From Vicinamibacterales bacterium (GTDB taxonomy: Bacteria > Acidobacteriota > Vicinamibacteria > Vicinamibacterales > UBA2999), in assembly GCA_035626435.1 (NCBI GenBank), contig DASPNQ010000007.1, positions 18,451-82,450 of the forward strand: 64,000 bases of DNA, read 5' to 3'. The first letter of the stretch is position 1. Every line of letters begins with the position of its first letter. The notes under the pieces are model-generated. The model did not search any database. It saw only the letters and a program-made list of their open reading frames with translations, and was not told where the DNA came from. Made by a program: the position numbers and the translations under genes. This document shows, piece after piece, positions 2,385-57,400 of this stretch.

Positions 2385-2456
2385 AAGACTCGCGCTGGAA
2401 CGCCGGACCCGGGCCCCGGGACCGGCAGCCGCAACCGGCCCGCAGGTCGAAGCTTA

Positions 2457-2488
2457 CCCCGGTTCCCGGTTCCCCGTTCCCGGCTCCC
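2457..2488 (-). repeat. GGGAGCC/GGGAACC-type G-tract microsatellite directly after the esterase stop codon
   Basis: The minus (sense) strand reads GGGAGCCGGGAACGGGGAACCGGGAACCGGGG. It begins 2 nt after the stop codon at 2491-2493. It shares CCCGGTTCCCCGTTCC with the copy at 55391-55432. Confidence 0.8.
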
Positions 2489-2490
2489 GA

Positions 2491-9256: not shown

Positions 9257-11913
9257 CGCTTGACCTCGGTCGGGCGCGACGAGAAGCGTTCGTACAACTC
9301 GGTGTGCTTGCTCTTGGTTCCGACATCCCGTCCGTTGATGAAGACGTGCGTGAACTGCGTCTTCATTTCCATCGGATCGCCGGTGGCGATGAACAGATTG
9401 GCCACCTTGCCAGGCTCGAGCGACCCGACGCGATCGGCGACGCCGAGAATCGTCGCCGCATCCAGCGTGATCGCGCGTAATGCGCGATCGCGGTCGAGGC
9501 CCCACGCGACTGAAATGGCGGCCTCGTACGGTATCAGCCGATTGTTTGCGGCGCCTCCGGTGCCGAACGCGAAGGTGACGCCGGCCCGCGCCAGTTCACC
9601 CGCAGCCTGGTAGGTCGCCGCATGGTGCGCATCCTCGCGCGCCGGCAAGGTCAGCACGGACCCGAGAATCACTGGAATGTTCTTCTCCCTGAGAAGCGAG
9701 GCTGCAAGTGGCGCCTCGAGGCCGCCGGTGATCACGATGCGAACGCCGGCACGATCGGCGAACGCGACGGCCTCGCGGATGTCGGATTCGGCATTGGCTG
9801 CGACGAACATCGGTTGTTTGCGCTCGGCCACTGGTGCCAGCGCGGCGAGGTTCCAGTCGGTGGCACGTTCTGCCGCCGGCAACAATGCGTAAGCGCGCGC
9901 CCGCGCGATCAGGTCTTCCACTCGCCTGACTTTCGCATCGCGCTCCTTCTTGAGCTCCTCGTATTTGCGATTCGCATCAGTCGCGGCACCGGCGCCCTGC
10001 GTCCGCGCCAGCAGGGGAAACTGAAAGCTGACGCCGGCGACCGGTTCGAGCGTCGCTTCTTCCCAGGTCCAGCCATCGAGATTCATCACGGCGATCTGTC
10101 CGCCGATCAGGCCGCCGGACGGCACCACGGCGACCGTGGTGATGCCGTTGACGCGCGCCACCGGAATGGCGTCGCTGTCGCTCTGATAGGCGACCTGCGC
10201 CTTGATCGCAGCGTTGATGTCGAGCATCTCGTTGGTGTCTTCGAAATTGCGCGGCCCGGGCTCGTTCAAGCCGATCGACGTCCGCGCGTCGATGAAGCCG
10301 GGATACACCTCGCCGCCCTTGGCATCGATCACTTGCGCGCCGGCAGGAACCGTCACGTTCGCGCCGACGGCTTCAATGCGATTGCCGCGGATCAAGACGA
10401 TGCCGCGATCAATCGAGGGCCCGCTGATCGGGAAGATGCGAGCGTTGGTAATTGCCGTCAACGCCCCGCCGCCCGACGGCATTTGCGGTTGTCGCGCCGA
10501 TGCTGCAGCAGATCCAAATGTCTCATCCGGCATCTGTGCCATCTGCGGCCCTGGAGTCTGCGCCTTCTGCGGCCCTGACGTCTGTGCCATCTGCGGCCCT
10601 GCAGTGGGTGGCGCACCAAGCTTCATCTTTTCCCGATTCGCGTCGGACAGGCGCCGCTCTTCCGCCGGACGATCGTAGTACTGCTCGCCATCGATGTAGA
10701 CGCGGTCGACGATTGCGTAGGTGCTCAGCGGATGCTTGTTCCAGATCACGACGTCGGCATCCTTGCCGGCTTCGAGAGAGCCGACGCGGTGGTCGATCTT
10801 CAACTGCTTTGCGGGGTTGATCGTCACGAATGCGAGCGCTTCGTCTTCGCTGACGCCGCCCCAATGAATCGCTTTCGCCGCCTCGGTGTTGAGCCGGCGC
10901 GCATGTTCGGCGCTGTCCGAGTTGATCGACACGAGGACGCCGCGGCGATGCATCAACGCCGCGTTGTACGGGATCGCGTCTTCAGCCTCGATCTTGTAGG
11001 CCCACCAGTCGGAGAATGTCGACCCGCCGACGCCATGCTTCGCCATTTCATCGGCGACCTTGTAGCCTTCGAGCACATGCTGGAACGTCGCGATCGTGAA
11101 GCCGATCTCCTCTGCGAGGCGGATCAGCATCAACGTTTCGTCGGCGCGGTAGGTGTGCGAGTGCACGAGTCGCGTGCCGTCGAGAATTTCCACGAGCGGT
11201 TCGAGCTGGAGGTCGCGCCTCGGCATCGACACGTCTTCGCCGGCGTTCTTCCGGCGCTCGTAGTCACGCCACTCGCGCTGGTATGCCTTCGCGCGGCTGA
11301 ACGCGTCGCGAATCACGAACTCGACGCCCGGCCGCGTCACCGGATACCGCCGTGGCCCGGTCTGTCCGAACTGACGCATGTCCTTCGGGTTCTCGCCGAG
11401 CGCGAACTTGATTCCTGGCGGCGCGCCATCGAACATCAGCCCGCGCGCGTCCTTGCCCCAGCGCAGCTTGATCACCTGGTTCTTGCCGCCAATCGGGTTC
11501 GCGCTGCCATGGAGCACGTTGGCGACCGTCAAGCCCCCGGCGAGGTCGCGGTAGATCGAGACGTCCGTCGGATTCATCACGTCCTCGATGCCGGTCATCG
11601 AGCTCACGGTTGTGCCGCCTTCGTTGATGGAGTCGGCGCCAATGTGAGAGTGCGCGTCGATGATTCCCGGCGTGACGAACCGGCCTTTGGCGTCGACAAT
11701 GTCGGCGCCTGCGGGAACCGGCGTGTTTGGCCCGCCGACGGCGGCGAGTTTGCCGTCTCGCATCACGACGACGCCGTTGTCGATGGTCCCGCGCGTCACG
11801 GTCAGCACGGTGCCGCCGCGAATCGCCACGGCGCGCGACTGCGCCAACGACACGCTTTGGACAGCGACAATCGCGGACACACCGATCAGCAGTCCGCACG
11901 TCGAAGATTTCAT
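9253..11913 (-). CDS. Secreted two-module amidohydrolase (catalytic N-module + degenerate C-module)
   Basis: 886 aa. The N-module has GIIDAHSHIG (HxH). A Pro/Gln/Ala-rich repeat linker follows. The C-module (VYPGFIDARTSIG) is paralogous to the downstream 444-aa protein. Confidence 0.8.
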   Translation of the reverse strand: MKSSTCGLLIGVSAIVAVQSVSLAQSRAVAIRGGTVLTVTRGTIDNGVVVMRDGKLAAVGGPNTPVPAGADIVDAKGRFVTPGIIDAHSHIGADSINEGGTTVSSMTGIEDVMNPTDVSIYRDLAGGLTVANVLHGSANPIGGKNQVIKLRWGKDARGLMFDGAPPGIKFALGENPKDMRQFGQTGPRRYPVTRPGVEFVIRDAFSRAKAYQREWRDYERRKNAGEDVSMPRRDLQLEPLVEILDGTRLVHSHTYRADETLMLIRLAEEIGFTIATFQHVLEGYKVADEMAKHGVGGSTFSDWWAYKIEAEDAIPYNAALMHRRGVLVSINSDSAEHARRLNTEAAKAIHWGGVSEDEALAFVTINPAKQLKIDHRVGSLEAGKDADVVIWNKHPLSTYAIVDRVYIDGEQYYDRPAEERRLSDANREKMKLGAPPTAGPQMAQTSGPQKAQTPGPQMAQMPDETFGSAAASARQPQMPSGGGALTAITNARIFPISGPSIDRGIVLIRGNRIEAVGANVTVPAGAQVIDAKGGEVYPGFIDARTSIGLNEPGPRNFEDTNEMLDINAAIKAQVAYQSDSDAIPVARVNGITTVAVVPSGGLIGGQIAVMNLDGWTWEEATLEPVAGVSFQFPLLARTQGAGAATDANRKYEELKKERDAKVRRVEDLIARARAYALLPAAERATDWNLAALAPVAERKQPMFVAANAESDIREAVAFADRAGVRIVITGGLEAPLAASLLREKNIPVILGSVLTLPAREDAHHAATYQAAGELARAGVTFAFGTGGAANNRLIPYEAAISVAWGLDRDRALRAITLDAATILGVADRVGSLEPGKVANLFIATGDPMEMKTQFTHVFINGRDVGTKSKHTELYERFSSRPTEVKR
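10533..10604 (-). repeat. 3 x 24-bp in-frame tandem repeat inside the amidohydrolase linker
   Basis: Plus-strand units are tctgtgccatctgcggccctggag / tctgcgccttctgcggccctgacg / tctgtgccatctgcggccctgcag. They encode GPQMAQT-SGPQKAQT-PGPQMAQM on the minus strand. Confidence 0.9.
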
Positions 11914-11915
11914 GT

Positions 11916-11959
11916 CAGCTCCCTAGCTCCCTAGCTCCCCAGCTCCCCAGCTCCCCAGC
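11916..11959 (-). repeat. 5.5 x 8-bp tandem repeat (GGGAGCTR) abutting the amidohydrolase start codon
   Basis: The minus strand reads GGGAGCTG GGGAGCTG GGGAGCTA GGGAGCTA GGGAGCTG AC ATG. Each unit carries a Shine-Dalgarno-like GGGAG. The proximal GGGAG lies 5 nt from ATG 11913. Confidence 0.9.
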
Positions 11960-12473: not shown

Positions 12474-12512
12474 AACGGGCTCGTACTGCGGTGCGAGCCC
12501 GTTTTTCATTTT
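12474..12512 (+). terminator. Rho-independent terminator
   Basis: Perfect 10-bp stem AACGGGCTCG / CGAGCCCGTT with a 10-nt loop, followed by TTTTTCATTTT. It lies 28 nt after the stop at 12444-12446. Confidence 0.8.
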
Positions 12513-12557
12513 CTGGTGCCCGTTTGCCAGCTGTCCGGTTGCCATGTGCCGGTTGCT

Positions 12558-12615
12558 AGGTGCCAGGTACACTCCGCCCAAATTATGGTTATTGGGGGCC
12601 AGGTACACTCCACCC
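12558..12615 (+). repeat. Two copies of a ~22-bp repeat (AGGTGCCAGGTACACTCC..), left arm of an inverted array
   Basis: Copies lie at 12558-12579 and 12594-12615 (core GCCAGGTACACTCC), 36 bp apart. Confidence 0.85.
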
Positions 12616-12744
12616 GCCGGGAGTTCGTACTGGCGTCGGGTTGTCGCTGGTTCCTGGACCCAGTAACCGCACCGGCGCTTGCGCCTCGAGAGTGTAGGCA
12701 ACTAACCCCCAGCAGTGGAATTGCACCTGGCATCTCCAGCCAGC

Positions 12745-12866
12745 GGTTGGAGTGTACCTGGCACCTGGCAGTCAGGTGGTTGGAGTGTACCTGGCACCTA
12801 CTAGCCGCCGGCGGTTGCCGTGTACCTGGCACCTGCCGACGGGTGGTTGGAGTGTACCTGGCACCT
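12745..12866 (+). repeat. Four copies of the reverse-complement 22-mer GGTTGGAGTGTACCTGGCACCT
   Basis: Copies lie at 12745-12766, 12778-12799, 12813-12834 (variant GGTTGCCGTGTACC..) and 12845-12866, with a 32-35-bp period. They lie 51 bp or more upstream of the capA-like ATG. Confidence 0.9.
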
Positions 12867-12916
12867 AGTAACCGGCAGGAGGTTGCGAAGCGGGGCGGTT
12901 ATATACTGCCGCGCCT

Positions 12917-41317: not shown

Positions 41318-42010
41318 TCACCCGGCGAACTTGTAGCCGAGCCCGTGGACCGTCAGGATGTACTGCGGCACGCGAGGGTTGGGCTCGAGCTTCTGGCGCA
41401 GCCACGCGACGTGGACGTCGACGGTCCGTGTTGACGGCGCGTTGGTGTAACCCCACACCTGATGCAGCAGCTCGTCGCGGGAAATCGTCGCGCCGCGATG
41501 CTCGATGAAGTACTTCAGCAGTTGAAATTCCTTCGCGGACAAATCGAGCGGCCGGCCGTTGCTGGTGATTTCCGCCTTGCGAACGTCGACGGTCACGTCT
41601 CCGAACTGATATCGCTCCAGCGACACGCCCGACGAGCCCGAAGGGGCGCGGCGCATCAATGCTTCGATGCGCGCGAGCAGCTCGATCGTTTCGAACGGCT
41701 TGGTGAGGTAGTCGTCGGCACCCAGCTTCAGCCCGACCACGCGATCGACGACTTGCGTGCGTGCGGTCAACATCAGGATCGGGGTCGAGATGCCTTGCCC
41801 GCGAATCGTCTTGGCAACGTCGAAGCCGTCGCGGCCCGGCAGCATGACGTCCAGCACGATGATGTCGAACGGCTCGCCGGTGGCGCGAGCGATGGCGGCA
41901 TTGCCGTCGGAGGCGGTCTCGACGGCAAAGCCTTCGGCAGCCAACCGATCGCTCAACGCCAGCTGCAGGCCCGGCTCGTCTTCAACGAGTAGTAGTCGCT
42001 TCTCGGGCAA
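41318..42010 (-). CDS. OmpR-family response regulator
   Basis: Receiver domain LLLVEDEPGL / DIIVLDVMLPGRDG, and a winged-helix C-terminus (...ILTVHGLGYKF). The only in-frame start upstream of the receiver domain is TTG 42010, giving a 29-nt overlap with the kinase gene. Confidence 0.9.
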   Translation of the reverse strand: MPEKRLLLVEDEPGLQLALSDRLAAEGFAVETASDGNAAIARATGEPFDIIVLDVMLPGRDGFDVAKTIRGQGISTPILMLTARTQVVDRVVGLKLGADDYLTKPFETIELLARIEALMRRAPSGSSGVSLERYQFGDVTVDVRKAEITSNGRPLDLSAKEFQLLKYFIEHRGATISRDELLHQVWGYTNAPSTRTVDVHVAWLRQKLEPNPRVPQYILTVHGLGYKFAG

Positions 42011-44153
42011 GGGTCAGCGCTTCCGGCGAGGTGCGATCGTGACTGGCGGGTACTGACAGGGTGAATACGCTGCCTTGGCCCGGTTCGCTGGCAACGTCGA
42101 GGCGCCCGCCATGCGCTTCCGCAATCCGCAGCACCAGGTTCAGGCCGAGCCCGCTTCCCTGAATCTGTTGCGCGACCGCATCGCGGCCGCGATAGAACGG
42201 TTCGAAGATGTGCTTGCGGTCTTCGGCATCGATGCCAAGGCCGCGGTCTTCGACGGCAAACGTCACCTCCGGTGCCGGCAGCCGGCGGCCGGGCGCCGTG
42301 CGCGCCGATACGCGAAGCCACCGTGCCTGACCGCCGTACTTGACGCCATTGCTGATCAAATTCTGCAGTGCGGCTTTCAGCGCGGTCGCGTCGCCGGCGA
42401 TGTGCGGCAGGTTGTCGGCAATCGACACTTCAACGGCGACGCCGGCCTTCTCGATTTCGTTCCGGCACGCGGCGATCGATTCATGAACCAGCTCCGCCGG
42501 GCTGATTGGCGTCTGCGCCGCGGCGGCCGTGCCGGCGGCAATGCCGGCCAGTTGCAGCACGCGCTCGACCGTCTCACCAAGACGGCGCGCTTCGTTTTGA
42601 ATGGTCTCGCCGTACTTGCGCACCCGCTGGGGATCGCCAACCACGCCGTCGGCAAGGTTACCGGCTGCGGCGCCAATCACCGAAACCGGAGTGCGAAGCT
42701 CGTGTGAGACCGCTGCGACGAACTCGATCTGCTGTCGTGCCAGCGCCTGCGCCCGCCGCGCCGACACCACGATCAAGCCGACCGCCAGCGTCAGCAGAAT
42801 CAGTACGCTCGAACTGATCAGCAGATTGCGCAGGCGCACCGCCGCGACGGCATTTTCGAGGGACCCGGCGCGATGCTTGGCCATCAACAGCCACCGGCCC
42901 TCACTGGGAAACGCACCGCTACGCGCAATGATGCGGCCGCCACGCCCGTCCCGACGCTCTTCGCGCTCGATCATCGAGACCACGATGTCTTCTTTCCGAG
43001 CGCCGGGACCTGGGAACCGGGAGCCGGAGTTGTGCAGGGTTTCGCCGGTGCCGGACGCGTGCTCCCGGTTCGCGGCTCCCGGCTCCCGGCTGCCGGGATT
43101 GTGCGTGGCTTCGAGTTCCCCAGCTGCCCGTTGACGGCTCCCGGCTCCCGTCTCCCGGCTCCCGGGCGGAGGTGTGGGCGGTGGAACGGCCACGGTCTGC
43201 GTGGTGACGTCGCCACGCAAGTTGCGTGCGAACAGGAACATCTGATCCGGCCGCGGGCCCATGAAGGTTTGCGCGACATCGGGCGCGGCCGCGATCGCAG
43301 GGGCAATGCCCGGTTCGGATTCCCACACGACGTTCGCTGCATCGTCGCGCTGAACCACCGCCACGCGATAAGCGGACTCGAATTCGTCGCCGTGAAAGTG
43401 GCGCGCCGCCAAAGACGCGAGGATTGTCTCGCGGATGATCGCTGGGTCGAGCCGGACGATCGTGAAGCCGAGAATGGAAATTTTCGGCGGTCCTGGCCGC
43501 TCGTCGGAGACTTCGAACAGTGTCACTGGTGAGATCAGCGTGTTGTCATCGCCGATCGTCATCGACATGGTGGCTTCCCGGCGCGTTGCCATCGAGCCGT
43601 CGCCGCGGCGAGTCTGTGGCAAATGCAGTCCAATGAAGCGCGCCGCGAGCGAATCGCGAACCTTGAGCAGATCTTCAGGCCACGGCGATTCCTCGAAAGA
43701 GAGCGTTCCAGGATTCCATCGTCGCGCGCGGAGGCGGTCGATCGGGATTGCCGCGCCGCGTTCGAGTGACATCGGATCCGGCAGCGGTGTGCCGGGTAGG
43801 GTGTCGACCAGCCACACCTCGCGGACCAGTCGCGGCTCGCTGGCGCTGCTCACCCAGGCGGAATAGCGTTGCGCGTAAGCCGCCCAGTTCTGGTCTCGAA
43901 TGGTCTGGCCATCGACCTGAAGACTCACCAGCGTGCGCGACAGTTCGCCGTCGAATTCGGTCGCGAACTGGGCGGCGGCGGTTCGGAGCGTGCGCTGCAT
44001 GCGCTCCCTTTCGGCAGTGCTCAACTGGCCGAGCCACTGGTACTGCATCCACGCGAGCGCCGGCACGAGCAGCATGACGATGCCGACGAGGATCGTCACT
44101 GCCGAGACACGCCGCCGTCCGGCATGCAGCGCCGCGCGCCTGCCGAAGATCAT
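41982..44153 (-). CDS. Sensor histidine kinase (two TM segments, large extracytoplasmic domain)
   Basis: H-box AAVSHELRTPVSV, N-box LISNGVKYG, and DRGLGI / GSGLGL. The sensor domain carries a low-complexity insert encoded by GGGAGCC-type repeats. Confidence 0.85.
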   Translation of the reverse strand: MIFGRRAALHAGRRRVSAVTILVGIVMLLVPALAWMQYQWLGQLSTAERERMQRTLRTAAAQFATEFDGELSRTLVSLQVDGQTIRDQNWAAYAQRYSAWVSSASEPRLVREVWLVDTLPGTPLPDPMSLERGAAIPIDRLRARRWNPGTLSFEESPWPEDLLKVRDSLAARFIGLHLPQTRRGDGSMATRREATMSMTIGDDNTLISPVTLFEVSDERPGPPKISILGFTIVRLDPAIIRETILASLAARHFHGDEFESAYRVAVVQRDDAANVVWESEPGIAPAIAAAPDVAQTFMGPRPDQMFLFARNLRGDVTTQTVAVPPPTPPPGSRETGAGSRQRAAGELEATHNPGSREPGAANREHASGTGETLHNSGSRFPGPGARKEDIVVSMIEREERRDGRGGRIIARSGAFPSEGRWLLMAKHRAGSLENAVAAVRLRNLLISSSVLILLTLAVGLIVVSARRAQALARQQIEFVAAVSHELRTPVSVIGAAAGNLADGVVGDPQRVRKYGETIQNEARRLGETVERVLQLAGIAAGTAAAAQTPISPAELVHESIAACRNEIEKAGVAVEVSIADNLPHIAGDATALKAALQNLISNGVKYGGQARWLRVSARTAPGRRLPAPEVTFAVEDRGLGIDAEDRKHIFEPFYRGRDAVAQQIQGSGLGLNLVLRIAEAHGGRLDVASEPGQGSVFTLSVPASHDRTSPEALTLAREATTTR
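42998..43175 (-). repeat. GGGAGCC-type repeat block inserted in-frame in the kinase sensor domain
   Basis: The sense strand carries runs such as GGGAGCCGGGAGACGGGAGCCGGGAGCC and GGCAGCCGGGAGCCGGGAGCCGCGAACCGGGAG. They encode PGSRETGAGSRQ..ATHNPGSREPGAANRE..TLHNSGSRFPGPG. Confidence 0.85.
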
Positions 44154-53595: not shown

Positions 53596-54567
53596 ATGCC
53601 GCTACAGGTGGTTCCCGCCGTTGGCCCGGTCCTGGACCAAATCCTTGCCGATACGCACCCGCTGTGGCATGACGGACTGTCGCTCGCCAATTATGCGAAA
53701 GCCTGGCACGCGCAGCTCAAGACGCCATGGGGCATGCAACATCTCGATCGCGTAGCGCTGATCGACGGCCCGCATGTCCTGGCCAGTGCCAAACGGTACG
53801 ACCTGTCGGTACGGTTCGACGGCCGGATCCGGCGCGTGCTCGGCATTGGCGCCGTCTTCACCCCCGACGCACACCGCGGCCGGGGCTTCGCGCGTGAGTT
53901 GATCACGCGGATGCTGGACACTGCCGTCACCGAAGGACAGGAGTTCGCCATGCTGTTCTCCGAAATCTCGCCGGCGTTTTACGAGCGGCTCGATTTCGTG
54001 CCGGTGCCGTTGATTGAATCCACACTCGAAGTCGATCAGAAGCGCGGCGGCGCGCCCGCCATGCTCGTCCGCAGCGGCGACGACAAGGATCTGCCCGCGA
54101 TCGCCGAGATGAGCGCCGCACGCGCAGTCGACGCACGTCTCGCGCTGGATCGCGCCGAGGACTTCATCCGCTTCAACATCACGCGCAAGCGCTTGCAGTC
54201 GGGACTGGCACCTCTCGGCACGCGCCACACCGAGTTTCTGGTCGTCGAAGAAGGCCACCAGGCGGTGGCGTATCTGGTGAGCACCGAACAGGACGGCCGC
54301 TGGATGATCGAAGAGGCGGGCGATCGCGATCCGGCCGGCGCGCGTCTCGGCGCCATGCTGCAGGTGATGCTGGCTCGCTATCCGAGCGAGCGTCTGCCGG
54401 AGATCAAGTGCTGGTGGCCGCGCGCATTGGTGCCACCGCAGGTGCGCGTCGCGGCCGCGATACCGACCCAGTCGGTTCTGATGATCAGGCCATTACGCGA
54501 CCGCATCCTGCCCCTGCCGCCGCTTGCCGCCGCGGAAGTCGTGTATTGGCATGCGGACTATTTCTAA
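53596..54567 (+). CDS. GNAT-family N-acetyltransferase (multi-domain)
   Basis: GAVFTPDAHRGRGFARELITRML matches the acetyl-CoA-binding R-x-x-G-x-G/A region. 323 aa. Confidence 0.65.
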   Translation: MPLQVVPAVGPVLDQILADTHPLWHDGLSLANYAKAWHAQLKTPWGMQHLDRVALIDGPHVLASAKRYDLSVRFDGRIRRVLGIGAVFTPDAHRGRGFARELITRMLDTAVTEGQEFAMLFSEISPAFYERLDFVPVPLIESTLEVDQKRGGAPAMLVRSGDDKDLPAIAEMSAARAVDARLALDRAEDFIRFNITRKRLQSGLAPLGTRHTEFLVVEEGHQAVAYLVSTEQDGRWMIEEAGDRDPAGARLGAMLQVMLARYPSERLPEIKCWWPRALVPPQVRVAAAIPTQSVLMIRPLRDRILPLPPLAAAEVVYWHADYF

Positions 54568-54570
54568 CCG

Positions 54571-54790
54571 AGAGCCGGGAGCCGGGAGCCGGGAACCGGG
54601 ATTCGGAAGCCGGGAGCCGGGAGCCGGGAGCCGGGAACCGGCAGCGGCGAGCGGGGGATCGTAGACCGCGGAGCCGGGCGGGGGTCGGGGTGGCGATCCG
54701 GGAGCGGGCCTGGGAGCCGGCAGCGGGAATCCGGGAGCGGCGAGCGGAGAGTGGCAGCGCGGCGCCGCGCGGGCGAGGGGGTCGCAGCGA
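54571..54790 (+). repeat. Largest GGGAGCC/GGGAACC microsatellite array (two canonical G3N4 x4 blocks plus degenerate copies)
   Basis: The array starts 4 nt after the GNAT stop. It reads AGAGCCGGGAGCCGGGAGCCGGGAACCGGGATTCGGAAGCCGGGAGCCGGGAGCCGGGAGCCGGGAACCGG... and then degenerates (GGAGCCGGGCGGGGGTCGGGG..). Confidence 0.9.
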
Positions 54791-54823
54791 GGGACGTTGG
54801 AGCGCGAGCCCTCGCCCCGCGCC

Positions 54824-55204
54824 CTACTCGATCGTGCGTGATGCGAGAGACTCGTGCAGTCTATAAAGCATCGCGCCCACGCGATCACTCGTCGCGAGCA
54901 GATGGGAGCAGGTAGCTTCGTCCATTAGCGCGTTACGCCGGGCAATTTCGATGTGAGTTTCCAATTCGCCTTGAGAGCCCATCGCGATGGACACGTGGTT
55001 CTGATATGCCGATGTGCGCTTCTTTCGTCGATAGCCCTCCGCCACATTCGACGGAATTGACGCAGCGGCACGACGAATTTGCCGCCGGAGATCGAAATCG
55101 GCGCGCGGCAGCTGCCTTGTCGATACGTAAACCAAATCTACAAGATCCATAGAGACCTGCCACACCTCAAGATCGCGGAATGAGCTCGGCGTCGCTGCAC
55201 ACAT
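54824..55204 (-). CDS. Four-helix-bundle protein (23S rRNA intervening-sequence protein / TIGR02436 family)
   Basis: Contains FRDLEVWQVSMDLVDLVY, LRRQIRRAAASIPSNVAEGYRR and ..SIAMGSQGELETHIEIARR, the typical family signature. Confidence 0.85.
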   Translation of the reverse strand: MCAATPSSFRDLEVWQVSMDLVDLVYVSTRQLPRADFDLRRQIRRAAASIPSNVAEGYRRKKRTSAYQNHVSIAMGSQGELETHIEIARRNALMDEATCSHLLATSDRVGAMLYRLHESLASRTIE

Positions 55205-55390
55205 GCGAGCGTTTTGTGCAGATGTTGTGCCTGGCGGAATCGTTGCGATATGCGCCGCGAGCCGGCGCCGCTGTAAACAACAGTTGCATACGCGCGAATT
55301 TCCCGCCGGGAATCTCTGCTACTTCCGTTTGCGTGATGCAACTGGAGTGGCACTGTGTTGGGTGGCTGCGAATGGCTTGGGCGCCCAACG

Positions 55391-55432
55391 CCCTCGCGCC
55401 CGGCTCCCAGCTCCCGGTTCCCCGTTCCGGGG
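55391..55432 (-). repeat. GGGAGCC-type G-tract repeat directly after the stop of the small Cys protein gene
   Basis: The minus (sense) strand reads CCCCGGAACGGGGAACCGGGAGCTGGGAGCCGGGCGCGAGGG, starting 4 nt after the stop at 55436-55438. Its orientation is inverted relative to the 54571 array. Confidence 0.85.
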
Positions 55433-55435
55433 TCG

Positions 55436-55675
55436 TTACTTCTCCTGCATCCGGCCGCGCAGCCCGCCGAGATCGAACACTCCCGATCGATCGCCGGCCT
55501 TGAGGTAATCGGCCAGGCACTTGCGCGAGCAGAACAGGCCGGCATCTTCGAGCTGATCGCTGTGAGTCATGCCGTCCGGATCTGCCGGCAGCATTTTGTG
55601 GCGCCGCAATTCGAACGTGTCGAACGGCTGATTCTTGGGGAAGGACTCCGCGCACTGTTTGCAACGCATGCTCAT
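55436..55675 (-). CDS. Small Cys4 (zinc-ribbon-like) protein, unknown function
   Basis: 79 aa with CKQC ... CSRKC pairs. It starts 6 nt after the upstream gene stop. Confidence 0.45.
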   Translation of the reverse strand: MSMRCKQCAESFPKNQPFDTFELRRHKMLPADPDGMTHSDQLEDAGLFCSRKCLADYLKAGDRSGVFDLGGLRGRMQEK

Positions 55676-55681
55676 CGTGGC

Positions 55682-57400
55682 CTACCTGGTTGCCGAGAGT
55701 TTAACGTCAACGGCCTTGGATTCGCCGTCGCCAATCTCGAGCCTCGCCGCCGACTCCCTGATTGCCGCCAGGAATTCAGCGTCGCCGGCCTGCCCGTCTT
55801 CGAGACCTTGCACAGCAACGATGTAGTAGGTCGCTGTTGGTAGCGCGGACAGGCGATAGCGTCCCTCCTGATCCGGCCGCGCCGCCTTGATGAATCGCGA
55901 CTGATACGTCCACAACTGTTCGTTGGTCGGAAAGACGACGACGGCTGCGTCGAGTACTGGATTGCCCTTCGAGTCCGTTACCAGCCCGCTGAGCGAGGTC
56001 ACCTTTTTCGTCAGAACAATCTGCGCGCCCGAGATGATTTGACCCGCGGGAAACTCTGACGGCGTATCCGTAATGTCCTGTCCTGCGACGATAACGGCCT
56101 TCATCGTCCAGCCTGGCGGCGTCGTCGCGCGCACCAGCGCGAAATCGCTCACGTTGCGCAACGCAAAAGACCAGTCGGCGGCAACGCGGGCTGTCGTCGC
56201 AGGTCCGCCCGGACCTCCGAACGCATCGGGTGATCCCGGCCGCAATCCGATCTGCAACTGCTCGGGACGGAAGTCGAACGGTTCGCCGGTATCGCTCACC
56301 ACAGTGCCGGTGATCGTCGCCGGCCGCGCCGCCACCAGCGTCAGACCGTCCACGTCGTCGTTGCCGACCGAAAGATCCATGCGTGCGAGTTCGAATTCGC
56401 GGCCGCCAACAACCGCGCGGACCTGATAACGGCCGGGGGCGACGTTGCTGACCCGGAATGCGCCGGTGCGGTCGATGCGGTTGCCGGCGCTGCCTTGCGG
56501 CATCGCCATCGCTGAACGGCCCCCGGCGGCAGGCACCAGCATCACTGTTCCACCGGTCGCCGGCGCGCCATCCGAGCCGAGGACCTGACCGCTCACGCGT
56601 ACGAGCCTGGTGGCGATCAATCCGAAATTGATGCCGGTGTTTTCCTGCGACACGCTCAGCATGATGCGTGCTGCTTCGGCGACGTTGGTGGTGCCGGGAA
56701 AGTAGGTCGCCGCATACCCCGAGGCTTCACCGGCGGGATCCGTAATTTCAGGACCGCCGGAACGCAGTGTCGCGCTGACGTAGTACTCGCCTGGCGGCAG
56801 ACCGAAGAGACGGAAGTGGCCCTGATCGTCGGTGGTGTCCCGGCTGTTCTGACCGGCCGGCGTCAAGCGGCGCACGCCGGCGGCGTAGGCATAGCGCCAC
56901 GCGCTGACGCTCGCGTTGGCGACGGGTTCACCGAATTCGTCGGTGATGCGGCCGCCGAGGACGCTGCCGCGCGGCAGCGCAATCGTGATCTTGTCGATGG
57001 TTTGCGCGTCCGCCAGTTCAATCGGCGTGCCTGACTCGGATGGGCGGCGCTGACCGTACTGCAACGCCACGAATCCGCCCTTGCTAGCGGTCACGGTGTA
57101 GCGACCGGCCGGCAACTCCCTGATCTCGAACCGCCCCTGCACGTCCGTCGTCGCGACACGTGATTCGCGCGCATCGGGCGACGACAGCCGCACCTGCGCG
57201 CGGCGGATCGGCGACCCATTGTCAACCGCGATGATCTGGCCGCGAAGCACGGCGGTGCCTCTCGGTGTGTCGACGCGCTCTGATTGCGCACGCATCGGGC
57301 GCTGTCCGCGCCCGGCCGCACCTTGCGGTGGTGCGGTCTGGGCCATAGCCAGGGACAGGAATGAACAGACCAGCAGGACGCACAACGCGACGTATTTCAT
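55682..57400 (-). CDS. Secreted multi-repeat carboxypeptidase-regulatory-like (CarboxypepD_reg) protein
   Basis: Signal peptide MKYVALCVLLVCSFLSLAMA. Repeated G.V.D..G.P...A.V....(G.Y.V.A) modules, for example TDVQGRFEIRELPAGRYTVTASKGGF. Confidence 0.75.
   Translation of the reverse strand: MKYVALCVLLVCSFLSLAMAQTAPPQGAAGRGQRPMRAQSERVDTPRGTAVLRGQIIAVDNGSPIRRAQVRLSSPDARESRVATTDVQGRFEIRELPAGRYTVTASKGGFVALQYGQRRPSESGTPIELADAQTIDKITIALPRGSVLGGRITDEFGEPVANASVSAWRYAYAAGVRRLTPAGQNSRDTTDDQGHFRLFGLPPGEYYVSATLRSGGPEITDPAGEASGYAATYFPGTTNVAEAARIMLSVSQENTGINFGLIATRLVRVSGQVLGSDGAPATGGTVMLVPAAGGRSAMAMPQGSAGNRIDRTGAFRVSNVAPGRYQVRAVVGGREFELARMDLSVGNDDVDGLTLVAARPATITGTVVSDTGEPFDFRPEQLQIGLRPGSPDAFGGPGGPATTARVAADWSFALRNVSDFALVRATTPPGWTMKAVIVAGQDITDTPSEFPAGQIISGAQIVLTKKVTSLSGLVTDSKGNPVLDAAVVVFPTNEQLWTYQSRFIKAARPDQEGRYRLSALPTATYYIVAVQGLEDGQAGDAEFLAAIRESAARLEIGDGESKAVDVKLSATR

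Follow-up and report, generated by a model that had tools for sequence, protein, structure and literature searches.

What is the G-rich repeat array that occupies positions 54568-54823 of this Vicinamibacterales DNA, immediately downstream of a gene for a GNAT-type acetyltransferase? The initial annotation of the 64-kb stretch (hereafter the window, 65% GC) had assigned the array to a dispersed family of heptamers matching the G-quadruplex (G4) motif and had proposed that it functions in RNA or DNA, for instance in 3'-end formation. Our analysis identified the array as one arm of an inverted pair, namely the longer one, which is partly decayed; together the two arms bracket an inserted cassette. 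The cargo of this cassette is a gene that the initial annotation had missed and that encodes a four-helix-bundle protein of the 23S rRNA intervening-sequence (IVS) protein family. Taken alone, this anatomy is a reading in which we have high confidence. The window matches two metagenome contigs, k141_176686 (ENA ERZ27257312) and k141_518163 (ENA ERZ27252495).

Inverted Pairs of Heptamer Arrays in the Window

The dispersed GGGAGCC/GGGAACC family described by the initial annotation is real, as GGGARCC dimers (GGGARCCGGGARCC, allowing up to two mismatches) occurred 28 times in the window compared with 2.76 ± 1.72 times in shuffled sequences. Canonical G4 motifs numbered seven against 1.5 expected, with six of the seven lying inside these arrays, and the two blocks reported to fit four successive G3 tracts, (G3N1-7)x4, were recovered at 54577-54600 and 54612-54635. 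The other copies were also located as claimed, at 2457-2489, 42996-43165, 55380-55432 and, with an 8-nt unit, 11917-11955. The resulting census comprises five heptamer arrays at three sites in the 64 kb and the 8-nt-unit array at a fourth site.

The heptamer arrays are organized as inverted pairs with the G-rich arm first, namely 54570-54766/55391-55434, 2396-2440/2457-2489 and 42996-43027/43060-43165. Arrays in the window lie 2-10 nt from stop codons, the exceptions being a copy internal to a histidine-kinase gene and the 8-nt-unit array in a 5' untranslated region; the proximity to stop codons noted earlier for the three intergenic 3' copies was thus confirmed. The reported lack of a canonical U-tract terminator was borne out as well, since the search for hairpins followed by a U tract returned none beyond chance, the one weak site being equal to the chance expectation and lying on the wrong strand.

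At the locus in question, the period-7 array begins 2 nt past the stop codon of the acetyltransferase gene (TAA, 54565-54567). The outer part of this long arm (54570-54639, plus strand) consists of about ten near-perfect GGGAGCC/GGGAACC heptamers and contains the two canonical G4-motif blocks. The inner part (54640-54766, plus strand) is a decayed, G-rich, heptamer-derived sequence (GGCAGCG, GCGAGCG, GGGAGCG and similar units) that has retained complementarity to the short arm (pairs I8, I11, I14 and I15). Inverted with respect to its partner, the long arm, the short arm (55391-55434) is an array of heptamers whose G-rich strand is the minus strand. This short arm begins 4 nt past the stop codon of a gene for a 79-aa protein, and the complementarity of the two arms (pairs I1-I9) reaches 92% over 24 nt. 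Between the long arm and the cargo gene, directly past the stop codon of the latter, an imperfect GC-rich hairpin occupies 54767-54822, with arms at 54767-54785 and 54804-54822 that are 74% complementary; this hairpin has no T run and hence no terminator-type tail. An Rfam scan of 54300-55800 at a permissive threshold returned no rRNA or other family and a single sub-threshold chance match.

The statement that the G-rich strand is the sense strand in every case fails twice. The stop codon of the cargo gene (54824-55204) abuts the long array, so that this gene has the array on its 3' side and reads it as C-rich in the sense direction, and the kinase-internal arm at 42996-43027 is G-rich on the plus strand and hence C-rich on the sense strand of the kinase gene. 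G-rich sense strands past stop codons are found because a G-first pair reads the same on both strands, so that a gene reading into the pair meets a G-rich array after its stop codon and the enclosed gene meets a C-rich one. The strand rule is a matter of geometry and not of selection on each gene.

The Cargo Gene and Its Predicted Promoter

The cargo gene (54824-55204, minus strand) encodes a protein of 126 aa that matched Pfam PF05635 over its full length (E 1.4e-27), TIGR02436 (E 1.7e-25) and the Xanthomonas protein XCC0516 of PDB entry 2gsc (E 1.6e-15). Searches of Pfam and NCBIfam returned only four-helix-bundle families for this protein and no match to RAYT, the HUH Y1 transposase associated with repetitive extragenic palindromic (REP) sequences. 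The gene has a GC content of 56%, and of 61% at third codon positions (GC3), compared with 65% and 79% for the host. PADLOC assigned neither the cargo protein nor its 79-aa neighbour to any defence family. An assignment as the accessory gene (Avd) of a diversity-generating retroelement (DGR) was considered and rejected: a close homologue is weakly similar to bAvd (E 2e-4, below the cutoff) and no reverse transcriptase is encoded nearby.

Upstream of the cargo gene lies a sigma-54 type promoter motif (55217-55232, minus strand; AGGCACAACATCTGCA, GG-N10-GC). The GGC...TGC columns were invariant in an alignment of the upstream regions of 18 loci (A2, GGCAY-N5-NTGC) and fit the sigma-54 sequence TGGCAC-N5-TTGC. 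The motif was detected in 43 of 56 loci, compared with 0.002 occurrences per 100 nt in controls. In the window, 13 nt separate the -12 TGC from the ATG of the cargo gene, and the corresponding spacing is 12-13 nt in 30 of the 43 loci with the motif, which suggests that the cargo mRNA is nearly leaderless. The cargo gene is thus predicted to possess its own sigma-54 promoter and to be expressed from a nearly leaderless mRNA. The region further upstream (55233-55390, minus strand) carries degenerate copies of the palindrome GCAAC-N4-5-GTTGC, two or three of which appear in the alignment; 20 of the 56 loci had at least two copies, the control frequency being 0.015 per 240 nt. These palindromes are candidate sites for an enhancer-binding protein.

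Gain and Loss of the Cassette at the Host Site

The left flank of the cassette is the acetyltransferase gene (53596-54567, plus strand; Pfam PF13527), whose 82-90% identical homologues are named GNAT and assigned to Vicinamibacterales. The right flank is the gene of the 79-aa CxxC protein (55436-55675, minus strand), which was found in filled and empty loci alike. The segment 54577-55436 measures 860 bp in the window and is reduced to 6 nt in strain L003, whose identity to the window is 99.5% across 1845 nt of the GNAT side and 97.6% across 207 nt of the opposite side; in this strain the remainder between the two stop codons reads TAG-CCGGGAGCCTGGTG-CTA. The two host genes converge, with stop codons that nearly touch, and the 860-bp insertion, bracketed by its arms, lies between these codons.

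To sample the site without bias, we used loci reached via GNAT homologues with 82-87% identity. In the more distant relatives L196, L197 and L200 the site is empty, with 3-6 nt between the convergent stop codons and no array; it is filled in L198, where the arms are made of GGGATCC units, and holds a lone GGGTGCC array in L195. The comparison of filled and empty loci indicates that the arms and the gene were gained or lost together.

The length polymorphism that the initial annotation suggested looking for was found at the cassette site, where the window has 3+2 GGCTCCC units and contig L188 has 2+4, and was not found at the esterase and 8-nt-unit sites, which were identical in the other contigs. 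The outermost unit of the short arm (55423-55432) shows a two-base difference, reading GACCCCGGAAC in the window and in L189 and GAGCCGGGAAC in L187, L188 and L190-L193, so that the window is not identical to contig k141_176686 at these positions. In practical terms, the arrays break short-read assemblies: several of the contigs examined here terminate within them, and most contigs with the GNAT gene or the gene of the four-helix-bundle protein measure 0.5-3 kb. Such short contigs fit breakage at the flanking arrays, and cassettes are therefore probably under-represented in binned genomes.

Relatives of the Cassette in Metagenomes

When metagenomes were scanned with the 126-aa protein, 61 loci were retrieved, most of them short metagenome contigs, and genes in the fetched loci were called with a crude GC3-based caller. 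Arms were detected by local alignment of the upstream flank with the reverse complement of the downstream flank in the 44 loci in which both flanks were available. Significant inverted tandem-repeat arms were found in 30 of the 44 loci, and the upstream arm was G-rich in 29 of these 30 armed cassettes. Strict period-7 arrays gave the same picture: upstream of the gene they were of the G type in 17 of 54 loci and of the C type in none, and downstream of the gene they were of the C type in 22 of 50 loci and of the G type in none. The G-arm starts 2-30 nt past the upstream stop codon, and the C-arm ends 2-14 nt from the convergent stop codon. Adjacent array pairs in the loci of this lineage were arranged G-then-C in 19 cases and C-then-G in four, and these four are neighbouring elements. 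We also considered whether the arms might be independent 3' arrays, one for each of two convergent genes, and rejected this because pairs were likewise found between co-directional genes and beside an RNA gene.

The architecture is shared by arms built from different units. Heptamers in the relatives include GGGAGCC, GGGAACC, GGGAGTC, GGGATCC, GGGAATC and GACGGCA, and non-heptamer arms consist of 18-20-nt units with a CGGGR core, of 45-nt units or, in an AT-rich organism, of GATTACA-like units. In locus L132 both arms show an identical two-tier order, with heptamers outside and 9-mers inside. The alignment score of a cassette's own arms was 2-3 times the median score against the arms of other loci, and the own arm was the best match in only 11 of 44 loci because related genomes share one repeat unit.

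Clustering of the flanks revealed recurrent sites, among them the GNAT/79-aa gene site and a site between an NtrC-type regulator and RNase P RNA, and at each of the recurrent sites the gene was found in both orientations. Moreover, gene clades of at least 70% identity span different sites and both orientations. The site next to RNase P RNA is occupied in the Vicinamibacterales relatives L077 (5738-6362) and L162 (2914-3400), and the neighbour gene there itself encodes a sigma-54 activator of the NtrC type. The cargo open reading frame (ORF) of L077 contains an in-frame stop codon and is probably a pseudogene. In L129 (670-990), about 280 nt of extra, AT-richer sequence separate the four-helix-bundle gene from the C-arm and may represent a second small ORF on the opposite strand.

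Could these arrays be neutral, slippage-prone microsatellites, with heptamer expansion favoured by replication, pairs produced by inverted duplication or gene conversion, and a position at stop codons that reflects nothing more than tolerated non-coding DNA? The variation of unit number between samples, the decay of the inner half of the long arm and the intact appearance of strains and species that do not have the element at this site are all consistent with such an origin, as are the unordered (GGGAGCC)n microsatellites of many high-GC phyla and the mismatches between the arms, which carry no sign of selection on pairing. However, the bracket architecture and the G-first polarity persist down to about 45% gene identity and across unrelated units, pairs in the lineage are ordered G-then-C rather than C-then-G by the 19 to 4 given above, and a fold-back in a histidine-kinase linker, described below, has been kept in frame at the same position across orthologues. 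We therefore consider a neutral origin to be quite unlikely.

G4 Motifs and the Polarity of the Arms

One function put forward by the initial annotation is that of G4 or R-loop elements. In this hypothesis a G-rich non-template strand, folded into a G4 or engaged in a stable RNA-DNA hybrid, would stop or pause transcription or stabilise the 3' end, and the two arms would act as inward-facing one-way blocks that shield the sequence enclosed by them. Canonical G4 motifs do occur in both arms of the cassette in the window, and in 29 of the 30 armed cassettes it is the G-rich arm that is turned towards incoming transcription, an arrangement that base pairing alone does not predict. Furthermore, nearly all unit types, including the 18-20-mers, have retained a CGGGR core with one G3-4 tract. 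In vitro, K+-dependent G4 structures are formed by related units, and in Xanthomonas the G4-capable repeats are more often the site of a transcript start or stop (PMC4692102).

The distribution of the motif among the relatives points in the other direction. A canonical (G3N1-7)x4 motif was present in both arms of ten armed cassettes and in one arm of eight, and was missing from both arms of the remaining 12; some arms, such as those made of GACGGCA (L140) or of GATTACA-like units (L184), have no G3 tracts. Competition with G4 formation would also be expected from the complementary partner arm, which is present in nearly all cases. In addition, the published effect on transcript ends concerns both strands and was accompanied by no regulatory role (PMC4692102), and (GGGAGCC)n arrays in other phyla have no strand bias. 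A G4 or R-loop role is not the best-supported reading, and we judge it unlikely. The functional proposal of the initial annotation therefore stands in part: the proximity to stop codons and the non-random orientation are real, but the data argue against the G4 as the conserved feature. What the 30 armed cassettes have in common is an inverted partner arm and, in 29 of them, a 5' arm that is G-rich. These data also suggest a caution for other genomes, since the presence of a partner arm should be checked before G4-motif matches in bacteria are read as quadruplex function.

A Possible Stem and Recombination Mechanism

The mechanism that we favour starts from the inverted arrangement of the arms. 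In a transcript crossing the element the two arms would pair into a long GC-rich stem, and in DNA a cruciform could result. If the stem works as in IVS elements, it might be a substrate of RNase III and would then serve to mark or process the flanking mRNAs at their 3' ends and to isolate the cassette transcript. The arms would be prone to slippage, which would account for the differences in unit number between samples, and prone to recombination, by which the cassette could flip, be lost whole or relocate between array-bearing intergenic sites with no transposase of its own. When the 892-nt RNA of the element was folded, the 5' G-array paired with the 3' C-array in both the minimum free energy and the centroid structures. 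We put forward the stem and recombination mechanism tentatively, as somewhat more probably wrong than right; as for the whole statement, in which anatomy and mechanism are joined, our judgement is evenly divided.

A number of results weigh against pairing and recombination of the arms. The fold of the whole element was only modestly better than that of shuffled sequences (z score -1.6, 20 shuffles); the fold-back in the kinase gene gave a modest z score of -2.4, and the one next to the esterase gene folded no better than shuffles (z score -0.7). The arms are only about 83% complementary, and their mismatches (170 of 277 being transversions, with no enrichment of G-U-compatible changes) show no sign of selection on RNA pairing. 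The repeat unit seems uniform within a genome, and the agreement between arms could reflect this uniformity or gene conversion. No arms were detectable in 14 of the 44 relatives, and array lengths may be collapsed in short-read assemblies. No target-site duplication was found at filled versus empty junctions, and no transposase or recombinase in or beside the cassette. Finally, base pairing does not explain the constant G-first polarity. This polarity would fit inward-facing G-rich blocks acting through an R-loop or a G4, and would also fit an unpaired C-arm of the cargo's own transcript serving as a Rho loading site; it could simply reflect common descent.

The missing duplication and the missing recombinase also count against a further hypothesis, in which the arms are arrays of protein-binding sites with a CGGGAG-like core, placed in inverted orientation as in the ends of Tn7 and Mu. 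Their ligand would be either a recombinase with its gene elsewhere or the four-helix-bundle protein itself, which would then move or regulate the cassette. Several observations agree with this model: the cassette occurs at several sites, with close gene relatives at different ones, the whole element including its arms is gained and lost together, and the CGGGR core is common to the 7-nt and the 18-20-nt units. The homologue with a sub-threshold similarity to bAvd adds a weak link to a nucleic-acid-binding DGR accessory protein, and RAYT genes offer a precedent, in that the REP sequences they spread also surround them in inverted orientation. Besides the two absences, however, the unit sequence varies widely among close protein relatives, and an activator-dependent sigma-54 promoter would be unusual for a mobility gene. 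Arrays of binding sites are, in our opinion, a very unlikely explanation. Classification of the element as a DNA transposon or a miniature inverted-repeat transposable element was rejected too: inverted arms are present, but the only ORF is the PF05635 gene and there is no target-site duplication.

Fold-Backs Without Cargo and Repeats Elsewhere

The G-rich heptamer of the cassette arms is a unit that this Vicinamibacterales lineage uses elsewhere, also in fold-backs that have no cargo. One of these (2396-2489, minus strand) lies between the stop codon of an esterase gene (2491) and the start of the next gene (2384). On the sense strand it is composed of a G-arm (2489-2457), a gap of 16 nt and a decayed C-arm (2440-2396), and it is identical in L194, the only other contig in which it was found.

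A second fold-back (42996-43165, minus strand) resides within the linker of a histidine kinase of 723 aa (ORF 41982-44153, minus strand). On the sense strand two G-arms (43165-43135 and 43096-43060) are followed by a C-arm (43027-42996), and the translation reads PGSRE...GSRFPGPG. An exact protein look-up for this kinase gave no match. In kinase orthologues with 65-75% identity the hypervariable linker, whose length varies by tens of residues, often encodes GSREPGxG...GSRLxxPG at the same position, a motif that corresponds to translated G- and C-arrays. The DNA of a 71% identical orthologue (L199, 1290-1400) contains the same G-then-C heptamer hairpin, and the GNAT site of its genome is empty, which indicates that fold-backs exist independently of the cassette.

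The array at 11917-11955 (minus strand) differs in having an 8-nt unit, (R)GGGAGCT, repeated five times directly upstream of the ATG of an 886-aa amidohydrolase gene. The GGGAG ribosome-binding site of this gene is part of the last unit, and the preceding units repeat the Shine-Dalgarno-like GGGAG further upstream. The array is unpaired, no partner arm having been found; it was identical in L201, the only other contig found, and is probably a separate microsatellite. Two other repeats were observed in this part of the window. The intergenic region 12500-12890 contains four to five copies of GGTTGGAGTGTACCTGGCACCT (Tandem Repeats Finder (TRF) periods 32 and 68) after 14-nt GGTGCC/GGTTGCC repeats, and the repeated CCTGGCAC in this region is similar to a sigma-54 -24 element. 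Inside the amidohydrolase coding region, at 10533-10605, TRF detected a 24-nt repeat, TCTGTGCCATCTGCGGCCCTGAAG, in three copies.

A scan of a genome collection with (GGGAGCC)3 returned at least 120 loci, mostly in Streptomyces, Kitasatospora and Actinoplanes. The strand bias anticipated by the initial annotation was not observed in these other phyla: on a crude gene call, arrays after stop codons were G-rich on the sense strand in 20 cases and C-rich in 21, and those in coding regions in 38 and 44 cases, respectively. Pairing showed no polarity either (74 versus 75 pairs), and no PF05635 gene was found adjacent to these other arrays except in a metagenome-assembled genome of Vicinamibacterales. 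As the arrays of other phyla have no bias, no polarity and no PF05635 gene, the repeat unit alone does not define the phenomenon. A Gemmatimonadetes locus (L030) was considered as a cassette and rejected, the array being located inside a signal-peptide coding region.

Comparison with Known Systems

Several known systems share part of the architecture described here. The REP sequences of Proteobacteria, with their mosaic (BIME) and doublet (REPIN) forms and the RAYT gene, are likewise dispersed extragenic palindromes just past stop codons that occur as inverted hairpin doublets and flank one gene, and their hairpins act as 3' stabilisers of mRNA or as recombination sites. The cassette differs from them in its tandem heptamers, as opposed to a unique palindrome of 20-40 nt, in a flanked protein without HUH/Y1 motifs, and in having several gene copies at several sites instead of one RAYT per family. 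Membership in the REP/REPIN-RAYT system was rejected, since the gene between the repeats is not a RAYT according to Pfam and NCBIfam.

The Foldback (FB) transposons of Drosophila and other eukaryotes resemble the cassette in their long inverted repeats made of short tandem repeats, with unequal and variable arms. Many of their copies are also devoid of coding capacity, and they promote inversions and deletions. FB elements are, however, eukaryotic and much larger, and their autonomous copies encode a transposase; the likeness is architectural only, and there is no homology.

A closer parallel is offered by the IVS elements in the 23S rRNA of Coxiella burnetii and Leptospira. The Coxiella IVS consists of an ORF of the PF05635 family located between complementary termini, which pair into a stem of 28 bp that RNase III cleaves (Warrier et al. 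2016, PMC4990558). Both IVS elements and the cassette thus enclose a single small PF05635 ("S23p") ORF between complementary termini; IVS elements are regarded as selfish or mobile in origin, and the ORF can decay in both, as in L077. The cassette differs in its location between protein-coding genes rather than in helix 45 of 23S rRNA, in its arms, which are tandem arrays of 40-200 nt and not a unique 28-bp stem, and in the predicted sigma-54 promoter of its gene. Processing by RNase III belongs to the Coxiella IVS and would extend to the cassette only by analogy.

The repeats themselves have close counterparts in the heptamers described by Rehm et al. (2015, PLoS One, PMC4692102), (GGGAATC)n in Xanthomonas and (GGGGAYT)n in Nostoc, which are dispersed, mostly intergenic arrays of 2-26 units near stop codons. 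These authors reported 70-75 convergent inverted pairs, a variation of array length between close relatives and the formation of G4 structures in vitro, with no function found; in RNA-seq data of Xanthomonas citri, transcripts started or stopped at the repeats more than at controls, on either strand. The window shares with these genomes a 7-nt unit with a G3-4 tract, the match to the G4 motif, the placement at stop codons and the convergent pairs, and differs in its phylum (Acidobacteriota, Vicinamibacterales) and in its unit, GGGAGCC/GGGAACC. One GGGAATC array listed in the same paper lies 6 nt past the bccP stop codon and overlaps the annotated start of XCC0516 (PMC4692102), which places an array next to a homologue of the cargo gene found here. 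The paper makes no link between the pairs and PF05635 genes, a sigma-54 promoter or the gain and loss of a cassette, and a full-text search of an incomplete literature coverage found no report connecting G-rich heptamer repeats with PF05635 genes.

Bringing these systems together leads to a broader proposal, which we regard as possible and rather doubtful. PF05635 genes might be the cargo of an unrecognised bacterial fold-back cassette, driven by sigma-54 and leaderless, that takes its arms from the repeat of its host. It would flip, disappear whole and relocate among intergenic sites beside stop codons without a transposase, perhaps by recombination between dispersed arrays. The ORF-bearing IVS elements would then be the same entity lodged in an rRNA helix, the heptamers of Xanthomonas, Nostoc and Vicinamibacterales would represent derivatives without cargo or else its landing pads, and the protein would act on the arms.

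What had already been published is the existence of dispersed G-rich heptamers near stop codons, and what we found no earlier description of is their link to a PF05635 cassette. The arms enclose a PF05635 gene in most of the soil-bacterial relatives, and the element is present or absent between near-identical strains and changes its site and orientation. The cassette thereby joins two puzzles, that of the heptamer repeats hugging stop codons, raised in 2015, and that of the origin of the ORF-bearing intervening sequences in rRNA and the role of their four-helix-bundle protein.

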